Shown here: in pieces, positions 12,041 through 14,896 of the stretch
How positions within the stretch are numbered: the stretch's first letter is position 1
Layout of the letters: each line of letters starts with the position of its first letter
DNA from: Candidatus Babeliales bacterium
Lineage (GTDB): Bacteria > Babelota > Babeliae > Babelales > JANWKD01
NCBI GenBank assembly: GCA_963722075.1
Contig: CAVRJM010000001.1
Location: forward strand, 149,898-213,897
DNA length: 64,000 nucleotides
Direction of reading: 5' to 3'
Notes under the pieces: generated by a model
The model's database searches: none
Seen by the model: only the letters and a program-made list of their open reading frames with translations
What the model was told of the DNA's origin: nothing
Made by a program: the position numbers and the translations under genes

Positions 12041-12367
12041 ATGAATATCTTACTATTTATAATTCTTTTCTTGTTTTCCTTCAATAACTGGGCTATGGAT
12101 TTTGGGTCCAGTAGGCCAATTTTTCCCCTTGTTCGTAATGATTTTATGGTTGACTATGTAATAAAAGGTCAAAATAATATTTTTCATATAAAAGCTAAAG
12201 TAGGTCCGGGTTCTTACTGGACTCAAATACCATTGGATTCTTCTCATTGTACCCCAATGCAATTCATTGAAAATGAACTGATGCAAAAGGATGTTAAAGA
12301 ACTTATTGATGAAAATAAGATTGCGCCAGGTTCAACTGCAAGGATACTTATTACAAGATTGTTTTGA
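12041..12367 (+). CDS. signal-peptide-bearing N-terminal part of a large secreted protein (probably one gene with 12291..14552)
   Basis: MNILLFIILFLFSFNNWA|MDFG. This ORF overlaps the next ORF by 77 nt. Removing one A from the A4 run at 12312-12315 fuses the two frames (..KELIDE-IRLRQVQLQGYLLQDCFDYAL..). Confidence 0.55.
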   Translation: MNILLFIILFLFSFNNWAMDFGSSRPIFPLVRNDFMVDYVIKGQNNIFHIKAKVGPGSYWTQIPLDSSHCTPMQFIENELMQKDVKELIDENKIAPGSTARILITRLF

Positions 12368-14552
12368 TTATGCTCTGAATAACTCTATCGAATATGTAAA
12401 TGCGGCACTTATTGATAAAGAGCGAGCACCATATCATTTATTATTAGCTACCTCTTTATATAAAGCGCTTACTGATACCAATGCTTCTGATGCAATTTTG
12501 TATTGTGATTCATTGCTCTGTTCGTATGCACCGTTGCAAGGCTGTTATAATACGGTTTTGGAGCACAGCGCATCATTAATTAACATTCTGGATCAAAAAC
12601 TAACACCTGGTCAAAAAACTATTCTTGAAGATGCGCTTAAATCAGTAAGTCATTTATGGTATAAGGCGCAGTGGAAACACGATGCAGATGCATGGAGAAA
12701 AATACAATCATTAAGAACATTTCGTGATTACAATGAAGAGACATTTGTATTAGCTCAGCCAAATGGGGATGATAGTGATATAATGCCGCTTTCAGATCCA
12801 TTGTTTGAAGATGCTCATGTTGATTTATTATGTACAGCTTGTTACCAAAATCCCATTTTTACTACAGTGCTTGAAAATAATCCAGCTAATTTTGCCTTAG
12901 AATGTAAAGCTAAATTAATGGGGAATTTTAATGAAACATTTAATTTTAATGCAGTTGAAGCCATTTTTAGAGATGTTAATGCCCCACCTATGGTTATTTC
13001 ATTATTGCGTGATGCCTTACATTTTTGGGCAGGTGCGGTAAGTGGTGTGGAAAAGGAGGTTGGAAGCCTGGCAATTAATTTTGGTGAGATTGCTTATGAT
13101 TATTCAACACAAAATGATATGAAACATTGTTTGAGCTTTGCCTATATCGGGCGCCAATTATTAAAATACGGTCAGATTGTACAGAATGTTATTATTAATA
13201 AATTTGATGAATATAAGCATTTAGCGGCTACAGGAGGGGAGTTCATTCAATATAGAATTGAATCATTTGCGCATTTTGTACCAGCATTAGCAGAAGCAGT
13301 AGATAGTTTAGCAAATGCACTCAATGGTAAAGGCTTTTATTCGCCTTATTATGCATTTGAAGAGCAACAGCTTATTGAAGAGGTGATACGGGATCCTTAT
13401 GCTTATAAAGAAAAACTTGATGCAGCTATTAATGATAATATGCTCATACAAGCAGGTGAAACCGCTCTTACCATGCTGCATTTTATTGCGCATCTACAGG
13501 ATCCTGCGGTTAAAGCGCATATTGCTTTAAAAGCGCCAGCAGTAGCAGTGAAAGTAGTGAAATATATTAATGACTATCTTGCGCTTCCTGATGAAAAGCA
13601 TTTTGAAGATACATTTGATTTTCTATTAGATGGTCTGATTATAAACAAAATTTTCCGCTTGGGTGGATATTTGTTTAAATTAGTTAGCCGTCATCATCAA
13701 GAATTAGAATTTTTAAGTAGAAGAGCTAAAAATATAAAGCAAGGCAAATTATTGGAGCGAGCGGAAGCTTGTTTAGAAAAAGCAGGCCAAAAATTAATTA
13801 ATAGCGCCAATAACAAATTAGTTCCAGATATTATGTCCTCTAATGGTGTATTATTTCGTAAAGGTACACCTAAACCAAATTTTAATAATGTAGTACCGGG
13901 ATTACAGAAATTCTTAACAGAGATTGGAGAATTAGAAGCTAAATACGGGCAACAGGCAGTACAACGAGTATTAGATGCGCTGGGCTATAATAATCAATAT
14001 GCTTTAAATAAAACCTTACATTGGAGAAATCAATATCCTTTTAAGCAAACATTAATGGAGATTATCGAAGAACATGCAAAAAATATAATTGATTTTGAAA
14101 GCAATGCAGGATGGAGTTTGTTGCCATTTGATCCTACTGAAGGTAATAAATGCATTTTAAAAACTATCGAAGAAGCTGTTGCGGGAGTCGCATGTGAAAA
14201 ACAAGGGTTATTGACAGGATTAGTGAGAGATAACGTTGTGGGAAGAGGAGATTTTATTGATGGTTTTGGAAAAATTTGGGATGTAAAAACAGCAAAAACA
14301 GATGGAATCTCCAAGTTTAATACTTTTAATGTTAATGATTTCATTCAAAGCATTGTTAAGGAGCTAACAAAACCTACCAATGAAAATGTAATTATTCATA
14401 TTTCATACTTAACTGAAAAAAAAGAATTTGAGTTACTTTGTAAAAAACTAAGAGAATTATCTAATGATCAATTAAAAAGATGTATTATGGTACATAAATA
14501 TGATACCAAAAAAACCACTGATAATTTAATTAAATTTTTAGGTAAAAAATAA
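12291..14552 (+). CDS. large hypothetical multidomain protein; N-terminal DCxDYA Cys-protease-like motif, C-terminal D..DxK nuclease-like motif (both tentative)
   Basis: A 753-aa ORF with no convincing SD or start of its own. LLQDCFDYALNN..(27 aa)..YHLLLA..ILYCDS resembles a transglutaminase/papain-fold Cys-His-Asp arrangement. The C-terminal ~130 aa contain GRGDFIDGFGKIWDVKTAK. Confidence 0.7.
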   Translation: MLKNLLMKIRLRQVQLQGYLLQDCFDYALNNSIEYVNAALIDKERAPYHLLLATSLYKALTDTNASDAILYCDSLLCSYAPLQGCYNTVLEHSASLINILDQKLTPGQKTILEDALKSVSHLWYKAQWKHDADAWRKIQSLRTFRDYNEETFVLAQPNGDDSDIMPLSDPLFEDAHVDLLCTACYQNPIFTTVLENNPANFALECKAKLMGNFNETFNFNAVEAIFRDVNAPPMVISLLRDALHFWAGAVSGVEKEVGSLAINFGEIAYDYSTQNDMKHCLSFAYIGRQLLKYGQIVQNVIINKFDEYKHLAATGGEFIQYRIESFAHFVPALAEAVDSLANALNGKGFYSPYYAFEEQQLIEEVIRDPYAYKEKLDAAINDNMLIQAGETALTMLHFIAHLQDPAVKAHIALKAPAVAVKVVKYINDYLALPDEKHFEDTFDFLLDGLIINKIFRLGGYLFKLVSRHHQELEFLSRRAKNIKQGKLLERAEACLEKAGQKLINSANNKLVPDIMSSNGVLFRKGTPKPNFNNVVPGLQKFLTEIGELEAKYGQQAVQRVLDALGYNNQYALNKTLHWRNQYPFKQTLMEIIEEHAKNIIDFESNAGWSLLPFDPTEGNKCILKTIEEAVAGVACEKQGLLTGLVRDNVVGRGDFIDGFGKIWDVKTAKTDGISKFNTFNVNDFIQSIVKELTKPTNENVIIHISYLTEKKEFELLCKKLRELSNDQLKRCIMVHKYDTKKTTDNLIKFLGKK

Positions 14553-14896
14553 TGAACGTGAGCATTGATTGGAATGACAAAACTATTATATATACTAAGG
14601 GTTCAATTTTAGACAAATTATGTTATTCAATGATCTCTATAATTGGAGAACAAGATATAGATATTAATGATGCTATTGATGAATTATTACGGGTTTGGTA
14701 TGACATTCCAGCTGGGGGAATTGATATTGCTGACTATATTCATAACAAAGTTGACTTTGATTCCTTTTTAATAATATTACGCAAAGGATTGGATAGGCTT
14801 TATAAAGAAAATCAATATATCTTTCTCCATTATAAAAATGATTTAGAAAATTTTTATCAAGAATTACTAAAAATTCAAGAATCATGGCCTACTTAA
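14552..14896 (+). CDS. small acidic protein translationally coupled to the large protein (immunity-like position)
   Basis: Stop and start overlap as TAATG (14550-14554). The protein is 114 aa, rich in D/E, and has no signal peptide. Confidence 0.65.
   Translation: MNVSIDWNDKTIIYTKGSILDKLCYSMISIIGEQDIDINDAIDELLRVWYDIPAGGIDIADYIHNKVDFDSFLIILRKGLDRLYKENQYIFLHYKNDLENFYQELLKIQESWPT

Follow-up and report, generated by a model that had tools for sequence, protein, structure and literature searches.

Does the gene pair at 12041-14896 of a 64,000-nucleotide window from a Candidatus Babeliales genome encode a secreted toxin together with its antidote, and what would such a toxin attack? The window, by which we mean the whole stretch of DNA analysed here, lies in a source genome that consists of a single metagenomic contig of 1.42 Mb with ~32 % GC. 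A first-pass annotation had described a large secreted multidomain protein in two open reading frames (ORFs), followed by a small acidic ORF, as a toxin/immunity-like pair. Our analysis indicates that the locus is probably made up of a gene for a polymorphic toxin exported by Sec and the cognate immunity gene, the tip of the toxin being a PD-(D/E)xK-type and most likely DNA-cutting endonuclease. The locus belongs to a known kind, the classical cassette of polymorphic toxin and immunity gene (Zhang et al. 2012), and the finding is mostly confirmatory, with a mechanism that we infer. The new material consists of the toxin domain family and the 114-amino-acid (aa) immunity family, both of which lie outside Pfam and NCBIfam.

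A mobile C-terminal domain on unrelated carriers

The layout of the locus is as the first-pass annotation gave it, including the ORF coordinates, the frame break and the overlap of stop and start codons (TAATG). ORF1 (108 aa; 12041..12367, + strand) and ORF2 (753 aa; 12291..14552, + strand), the latter in the next frame, overlap by 77 nt, and the 114-aa ORF (14552..14896, + strand) starts with an ATG within the stop codon of ORF2. Scans of all three ORFs against Pfam and NCBIfam returned no match. The first-pass annotation had recognised neither protein as a named family, and this holds for both the toxin domain and the 114-aa family. A word-indexed search with ORF2 found only ORF2 itself. With HMMER, 109 proteins matched ORF2 among 1.84 billion cluster representatives (50 %-identity clusters). 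One of them, P0006 (1179 aa), aligns across the whole of ORF2 with 30 % identity (E 8.7e-71), P0037 and P0013 share parts of the ORF2 central region, and the remaining matches cover only residues ~585-753. Almost all of the 109 hits have the matched domain at the C-terminal end, with 0-30 residues left after it, in proteins whose lengths range from 118 to 1542 aa. ORF2 can be divided along these lines into a carrier or central region (residues 1-584; 12291..14042, + strand), which holds no known domain and is homologous to P0006 over its full length and to P0037 and P0013 in part, and a C-terminal toxin domain (residues 585-753 plus the stop codon; 14043..14552, + strand), a predicted PD-(D/E)xK-like metal-dependent nuclease.

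To locate the domain in genomes, we scanned the GTDB species genomes with a degenerate DNA pattern for [DE]F[IV]D-x5-WDVK and then applied the family hidden Markov model (HMM). The pattern scan gave at least 117 loci against the ~9 that we estimate to be expected by chance; nearly all proved by the family HMM to be C-terminal members, spread over at least 110 GTDB species genomes. Among the loci listed, the domain occurs in Nocardia, Micromonospora, Actinomadura, Paenibacillus, Brevibacillus, Lachnospiraceae, Kofleriaceae (myxobacteria), cyanobacteria, Rhodobacteraceae, Comamonas and a Candidatus Babeliales metagenome-assembled genome (MAG); one prophage-like viral contig also has it. Since the domain is invisible to Pfam and NCBIfam, toxin genes in more than 100 species are currently annotated as hypothetical.

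The modules to which the domain is attached are equally diverse. They include eCIS_core/DUF4157, phage MuF, PT-HINT (8 of 112 members), PT-TG, TssD/Hcp PF17642 (one) and PrsW (P0105). A hydrophobic, signal-like N-terminus comparable to that of ORF1 is found in 23 of the 43 full-length relatives of at least 600 aa, and it characterises the clade closest to the window. The minimal form is P0008, in which a signal peptide and an A-M-[DE] motif are followed directly by the toxin domain. Conversely, P0037 has a carrier that matches ORF2 residues 25-529 at 23 % identity, yet the toxin domain is absent and a CdiA-CT(ECL)-like tip stands in its place; this tip (residues ~990-1110) matches the CdiA-CT of Enterobacter cloacae (PDB 4NTQ, E 8.8e-6). 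P0037 is the single example of such a tip swap, and it bears out in one relative the variable C-termini for which the first-pass annotation had proposed to look. With the domain on unrelated carriers and a related carrier with a different tip, modular exchange is seen both ways.

Taken together with the downstream gene described below, the locus and its relatives display four traits of polymorphic toxins in the sense of Zhang and Aravind: a terminal domain, unrelated carriers, an alternative tip and a co-varying immunity gene downstream. The view of the pair as toxin and immunity gene is thereby upheld, in that the domain is mobile and terminal on many unrelated trafficking modules and the downstream ORF is conserved in both position and sequence. 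Sequence comparison therefore supports the pair as a polymorphic-toxin-type effector with a putative cognate immunity gene.

A different function had been suggested for the N-terminal part of the carrier, namely a Cys-His-Asp block recalling transglutaminase/papain-fold proteases of the BTLCP type. The letters are real, but the relatives do not keep the triad: P0006 has Ala at the Cys position of DCFDYA, and P0037 has a residue other than Cys there, has lost the His and carries Asn for the Asp. No peptidase or transglutaminase profile in Pfam or NCBIfam matched ORF2, P0006, P0013 or other relatives, and we rejected the protease assignment.

One family member has a further match beside the domain. 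In a Noviluteimonas eCIS-core protein (L026:3851-6904, - strand), an Ntox1 match (PF15500, 28 bits) covers residues 802-884, directly upstream of the toxin domain. The protein may end in two toxins, or the Ntox1 match may extend over helices that form the N-terminal part of the toxin domain.

Active-site pattern and predicted fold of the toxin domain

The first-pass annotation had singled out a D..(D/E)xK arrangement near the C-terminus and compared it to PD-(D/E)xK nuclease toxins. The motif, GRGDFIDGFGKIWDVKTAK, is indeed present in ORF2, with D657 at 14259-61, D664 at 14280-2 and K666 at 14286-8. We measured conservation on 206 aligned sequences, with numbering within the 169-aa domain. E44, D80 and K82 are present in 100 % of the sequences, W79 in 99.5 %, R62 and an acidic residue at position 70 in 99 % each, and F71 and an acidic residue at position 73 (the D/E of FI(D/E)) in 98.5 % each, followed by D30 (94.5 %) and E52 (92 %). 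A conserved His is absent from the alignment. In ORF2 the conserved residues are E628 (14172-4), R646 (14226-8), D657 and the stretch W663-D664-V665-K666 (14277-88).

An AlphaFold2 model of the domain, built from a 33-sequence alignment, is confident (pLDDT 91, pTM 0.87). The predicted order is a helix at 39-53 bearing E44, a strand at 61-62 with R62, a strand at 71-72 followed by D73, a strand at 78-85 bearing D80 and K82, a helix at 97-108 and a strand at 115-122. The conserved acidic residue at 73 and the DxK lie at adjacent predicted strands, with the Glu on the preceding helix, and the modelled order fits the PD-(D/E)xK core known from CdiA-CT toxins (PMC9086364), with its E...D...(D/E)xK residues in the expected places. 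The D-x6-D-x-K spacing of the window domain is that of MutH (D70/E77/K79). Comparable sites have been described in CdiA-CT toxins, namely E177/D198/S209/K211 in TA271 and E187/D214/D223/K242 in Bp1026b (PMC9086364).

Foldseek comparison of the model with the PDB gave two restriction enzymes as the best hits, both non-significant (Eco15I N-domain, E 0.27; PvuII, E 0.41; TM <=0.31). Against BFVD, the best matches were uncharacterised giant-virus proteins (E 0.018, probability 0.91, TM 0.45), and the weak matches include five 'Restriction endonuclease' entries, one of them with an Mrr domain, and single PD-(D/E)XK, RecB and ERCC4 entries. The earlier guess therefore picked residues that prove invariant and agrees with the predicted secondary structure, while the structural hits to restriction enzymes stay below significance. 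Judged from residues and model, 'PD-(D/E)xK nuclease' is the best-supported assignment that we can infer for the toxin domain rather than a demonstrated membership.

The giant-virus neighbours deserve mention on their own account. The top BFVD matches are proteins of Terrestrivirus, Harvfovirus, Hyperionvirus and Catovirus, which are amoeba-infecting giant viruses, with TM 0.42-0.45. Going by the model, relatives of the toxin domain possibly exist in viruses that share the same hosts.

Sub-threshold Pfam matches among 112 members of the family fall to AAA_33 (18), SepF (13), CdiA_C (8, best E 0.0021) and CdiA_C_tRNase (3). As folds for the domain, AAA_33, SepF and Zeta_toxin were rejected: in the members inspected, AAA_33 and SepF align to no more than ~35 residues of a strand-helix stretch ('ENVILDTxxL') towards the C-terminus of the domain, and no Walker A motif occurs in the sequences read.

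The two CdiA families are the only toxin families that recur among these matches, and they raise the question of whether the domain is an RNase instead of a DNase, for example a tRNase like the PD-(D/E)xK CdiA-CT of Burkholderia pseudomallei. PD-(D/E)xK CdiA-CTs do include Mg-dependent tRNases with E/D/D/K sites (PMC9086364). Nevertheless, all CdiA_C matches lie under every curated cut-off and perhaps reflect a short local motif, most PD-(D/E)xK enzymes act on DNA (PMC3482391), and the pentapeptide-repeat proteins encoded next to the domain in 66 of the loci listed mimic double-stranded DNA, not tRNA. We consider an RNase improbable and favour a DNA-cutting enzyme.

Downstream partners of the toxin domain

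The gene that follows the toxin domain encodes a putative immunity protein of 114 aa, predicted to be cytoplasmic. Consistent with the first-pass description, the protein is very acidic (isoelectric point (pI) 4.45, net charge about -9), has no signal peptide and starts inside the toxin stop codon. Homologues of 112-115 aa, with 23-37 % identity to it, follow the toxin gene at a distance of 1-8 nt in L004, L005, L058, L053 and L114, which correspond to the P0007 and P0009 loci, a Babeliales MAG and two other MAGs. In six independent loci the family is encoded immediately behind the closest relatives of the toxin; the P0006 contig ends at the toxin gene. The 114-aa family is tiny, with 10 clusters among 5.8 billion. 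An AlphaFold2 model of the window protein (pLDDT 93.8) shows a beta-hairpin and four helices, and Foldseek found no fold match for it in the PDB.

Two ORFs come after the immunity gene at the P0009 locus, one of 99 aa (L005:9522-9821) and then one for a 509-aa ankyrin-repeat protein (L005:9952-11481), a type of protein typical of eukaryote-associated bacteria.

Elsewhere in the toxin family the partner is of another kind. Among the loci listed, a pentapeptide-repeat gene (PF00805, E down to 1e-28) directly follows the toxin in 66 others (within L007-L123; for example L008:1461-2084, L035:2358-2999 and L069:7240-7911), in Actinomycetota, Bacillota, Pseudomonadota and others. An hhalign comparison gave no relationship between the two partner families (probability 0.1 %). 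From its position, the pentapeptide-repeat partner looks like an unrecognised immunity class for a nuclease-like toxin family, and as far as our searches show, the family-wide pairing is undescribed in the literature searched.

Pentapeptide-repeat proteins are B-DNA mimics and are best known as gyrase protectors that confer self-resistance against gyrase poisons (PMC7897471, PMC5982219). Since the pentapeptide-repeat fold mimics B-DNA, we favour a DNA-directed toxin whose binding face would be blocked by the partner. The pairing suggests that DNA-mimic beta-helices may serve as immunity proteins against nuclease toxins, beyond their role against gyrase poisons; if true, this would be a new, direct role for the pentapeptide-repeat fold as a nuclease-toxin immunity protein.

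The same partners could be read the other way round, with the domain acting as a DNA gyrase/topoisomerase poison rather than a nuclease, and the pentapeptide-repeat protein guarding the target enzyme as Qnr, McbG and AlbG do. Self-resistance of this sort is what the fold is best known for (PMC7897471, PMC5982219), and it is the commonest partner of the family among the loci listed. Yet the invariant acidic residues and Lys, together with the predicted alpha/beta core, resemble a hydrolytic metal site and not a binding-only poison, and the unrelated small helical protein used by the window clade is more easily explained by direct binding to the toxin. We therefore regard a gyrase poison as very improbable and retain the nuclease assignment.

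A frame break separates the leader from the toxin body

ORF1 would supply the N-terminal part of the toxin. Its residues 1-18 are nearly all hydrophobic (MNILLFIILFLFSFNNWA) and are followed by MDFGSS, which agrees with the signal peptide and MDFG junction proposed earlier; the rest of the ORF covers the first ~80-90 residues of the toxin precursor. By its sequence, ORF1 fits as the toxin's detached secretion leader. As sequenced, the signal peptide and the toxin body lie in different frames, and because the frame break splits the leader from the body, the toxin is not exportable as one chain.

A motif recurs just after the leader in related proteins. The sequence [GSA]-M-[DENQ] follows the hydrophobic segment in the window (12041-12110), P0006, P0008, P0009, P0013, P0014, P0022 and P0043, and gene callers sometimes start at the Met of the motif, as in P0005 (90 aa versus the 108-aa ORF). 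Judged from this recurrence, the motif could be a cleavage or sorting signature of the clade.

The stops that bound both frames delimit the break: a TGA at 12279-12281 closes frame B, and the stop codon at 12365-12367 closes frame A. If both ORFs derive from one gene, it follows that a single +1 shift, by one extra base, lies in 12282..12364 (+ strand). The first-pass annotation had corrected the frame at the A4 tract at 12312. Such a run is present at 12312-12315, but a second A4 run lies at 12285-12288, nothing separates the two as candidates, and a site outside homopolymers is also possible. The tblastn similarity to P0006, the sole full-length homologue, begins at 12294 in frame B and is weak at that end. 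With the second run and this weak similarity, the break is placed no more closely than this interval. The single ~836-aa protein that had been proposed is consistent with the architecture of relatives, by which ORF1 and ORF2 would once have formed one protein of about this length.

We then compared the break across assemblies. The Logan contig L001 stems from a separate assembly, made from run ERR10755947, and matches window positions 10857-16736 (5,880 bp) at 100 % identity with the frame break in place. A 2.2-kb contig of GCA_052916205.1 is 99.6 % identical to the window, but begins only at 14193. Scans of the genome_contigs and metagenome_contigs collections for a close orthologue, in which the frame might be intact, found none.

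These data bear on whether the break is real. It could instead be an assembly or base-calling artefact, or be bypassed in translation, and the organism would then make one intact ~836-aa secreted toxin. In keeping with this, both pieces are open apart from the single shift, every conserved toxin residue is intact and the candidate sites are A4 homopolymers; moreover, a genome in one metagenomic contig suggests, in our reading, indel-prone long-read data, and assemblies of the same reads may share one artefact. However, the same sequence recurs in the second assembly, no intact orthologue turned up in the genome or metagenome collections searched, and runs of four A are short for homopolymer errors. 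We consider an intact toxin rather unlikely. Given the identical sequence in the second assembly and candidate homopolymers of just four bases, we lean towards a real inactivating mutation, by which the toxin gene would be a very recent pseudogene with its immunity gene kept intact.

Proposed mechanism and the evidence weighed

Based on the architecture of relatives, the precursor would consist of a signal peptide, a ~650-aa carrier without recognised fold and a ~170-aa C-terminal toxin domain. This domain would act as a divalent-metal-dependent PD-(D/E)xK-type endonuclease, most likely on DNA. The acidic 114-aa protein would be made by translational coupling at the TAATG and stay in the cytoplasm, where it would bind the toxin domain and cover its nucleic-acid-binding face, shielding the producer before export and kin after delivery of the toxin.

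Several observations weigh against the locus encoding such a nuclease and its inhibitor. The domain has no significant match to any nuclease family in Pfam, NCBIfam, PDB profiles or Foldseek (all TM <=0.45), and PDB profile searches with the 33- and 112-sequence alignments gave chance hits only, for example ribosomal protein uL10. AAA_33 and SepF both match one and the same ~35-residue C-terminal stretch in the members inspected and therefore look like a short local motif; the sub-threshold CdiA_C matches could be the same kind of signal. In addition, acidity is not conserved in the 114-aa family (pI 4.5-7.6), and the frame-broken copy in the window may not give a working toxin. As a broken and perhaps decaying gene, this copy carries limited weight.

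A bolder proposal, which we offer tentatively and think more likely wrong than right, is that the domain founds an undescribed and widespread PD-(D/E)xK DNase clade whose usual antidote is a pentapeptide-repeat DNA mimic, and that the Dependentiae-like version, with Sec export only and a new 114-aa immunity fold, is used against the DNA of the host or of a co-resident microbe.

Possible targets and genomic setting

Which cells would the toxin reach? A nuclease exported by a host-dependent bacterium may be host-directed or scavenging, in which case the intracellular inhibitor would protect the producer's cytoplasm before export and no bacterial competitor would be targeted. Barstar for barnase and NuiA for NucA are intracellular inhibitors of secreted nucleases of this kind. 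The closest relatives with toxin and immunity gene include a Candidatus Babeliales (Dependentiae) MAG (L058), and the source genome (1.42 Mb, ~32 % GC) fits host dependence; taken with a BamA gene, these features suggest a Dependentiae-like diderm that depends on a host. In this clade the toxin has a plain signal peptide and no module for contact-dependent delivery, the P0009 locus has an ankyrin-repeat gene nearby, and effectors of the restriction endonuclease (REase) fold against amoeba hosts have been proposed earlier (PMC3482391). On the other hand, the same domain is found elsewhere on the interbacterial delivery modules PT-HINT, MuF, Hcp and eCIS, host-directed REase effectors are characterised as lacking immunity genes (PMC3482391) whereas immunity is strictly linked here, and the lifestyle of the organism is a presumed one. 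A purely host-directed role thus appears to us doubtful. The linked immunity gene and the interbacterial carriers argue for a bacterial competitor as the target; in view of the Sec-only architecture and the lifestyle, a eukaryotic host may also be meant.

The first-pass annotation had called a polymorphic-toxin-like effector unusual in an intracellular bacterium, which was overstated. REase-fold toxins have already been described in endosymbionts of amoebae and of arthropods including insects (Zhang et al. 2012, PMC3482391), and the setting is accordingly less unusual than it had seemed. The Sec-only versions with their private immunity family offer an entry to asking whether host-dependent bacteria with reduced genomes fight competitors or attack host DNA.

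The surroundings of the locus are those of a housekeeping region, with genes for BamA, an HhH-GPD glycosylase, a GT28 glycosyltransferase, DUF2062, SmpB, ThyX and SecF. The GC content is unremarkable and hence gives no sign of an island, and a promoter and terminator scan did not do better than on shuffled sequence. A gene convergent to that for immunity encodes a 181-aa polytopic membrane protein (14933..15478, - strand) with an HEIAH (HExxH) motif and a weak match to DUF3267, 'putative zincin peptidase' (E 8e-4); the adjacency is kept in L001 and L002. Further downstream, the SmpB ORF (16685..17146, TTG start as listed) overlaps the end of the DUF2062 gene (16225..16719) by 35 nt, and the true SmpB start is probably further downstream.

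Comparison with known systems

The closest systems in layout are Tox-REase-1 to -10 (Zhang et al. 2012, PMC3482391), which have the same succession of a trafficking N-terminus, a variable centre and a nuclease-like C-terminus with E / D / (D/E)xK, the immunity gene coming directly after the toxin gene. They also use the same range of carriers, comprising the signal-peptide 'T2SS' type, PT-HINT, PrsW and phage-derived modules. Tox-REase-2, with the signature 'E, DG, [DE]xK, T, W', is actinobacterial and linked to PrsW (PMC3482391). By signature it is the nearest described look-alike, with a close resemblance to the actinobacterial branch of the window family, and the PrsW fusion of P0105 agrees with this; yet no member of the family, the actinobacterial ones included, matched the Tox-REase Pfam models at E up to 10. 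The window family differs from the Tox-REase families in its extra invariant R62 and W79, and the immunity partners listed for them (PMC3482391) exclude both the pentapeptide-repeat proteins and the 114-aa family.

A second parallel is given by the PD-(D/E)xK CdiA-CTs, represented by the DNase of E. coli TA271 and the tRNases of B. pseudomallei 1026b and E479 (PMC9086364). As here, a small cognate immunity protein is encoded directly downstream. The likeness to the window family extends to the sub-threshold Pfam similarity to CdiA_C and CdiA_C_tRNase, but not to any significant sequence or Foldseek match to the CdiA-CT structures (PMC9086364). The CdiA-CTs are delivered by the CdiB/CdiA two-partner filament, whereas the window toxin would depend on a predicted Sec signal peptide, and the immunity proteins are unrelated.

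The GH-E HNH toxins (Jablonska et al. 2017, PMC5714182) resemble the wider family in their partners, since a pentapeptide-repeat (YjbI-like) gene adjoins the nuclease toxin without any other recognisable immunity gene. They have a different fold (His-Me finger), the immunity role of the neighbour was not recognised there (PMC5714182), and the partner of the window toxin is itself not a pentapeptide-repeat protein.

Finally, Rehh / Tox-REHH (bioRxiv 10.64898/2026.09.22.753552) is likewise a widespread, unannotated DNase-type toxin domain carried by many secretion systems. We considered whether it is the same family and rejected this, as its site is a His-rich HNH-type one (R46, H52, E53, H102, H121) versus the E/R/D/DxK pattern here. 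The likeness lies in the antidotes: unrelated acidic immunity families, proposed to mimic DNA electrostatics and occlude the DNase pocket, swap with one another in Rehh (bioRxiv 10.64898/2026.09.22.753552), and this parallels the switch between pentapeptide-repeat proteins and the 114-aa family downstream of the toxin domain described here.

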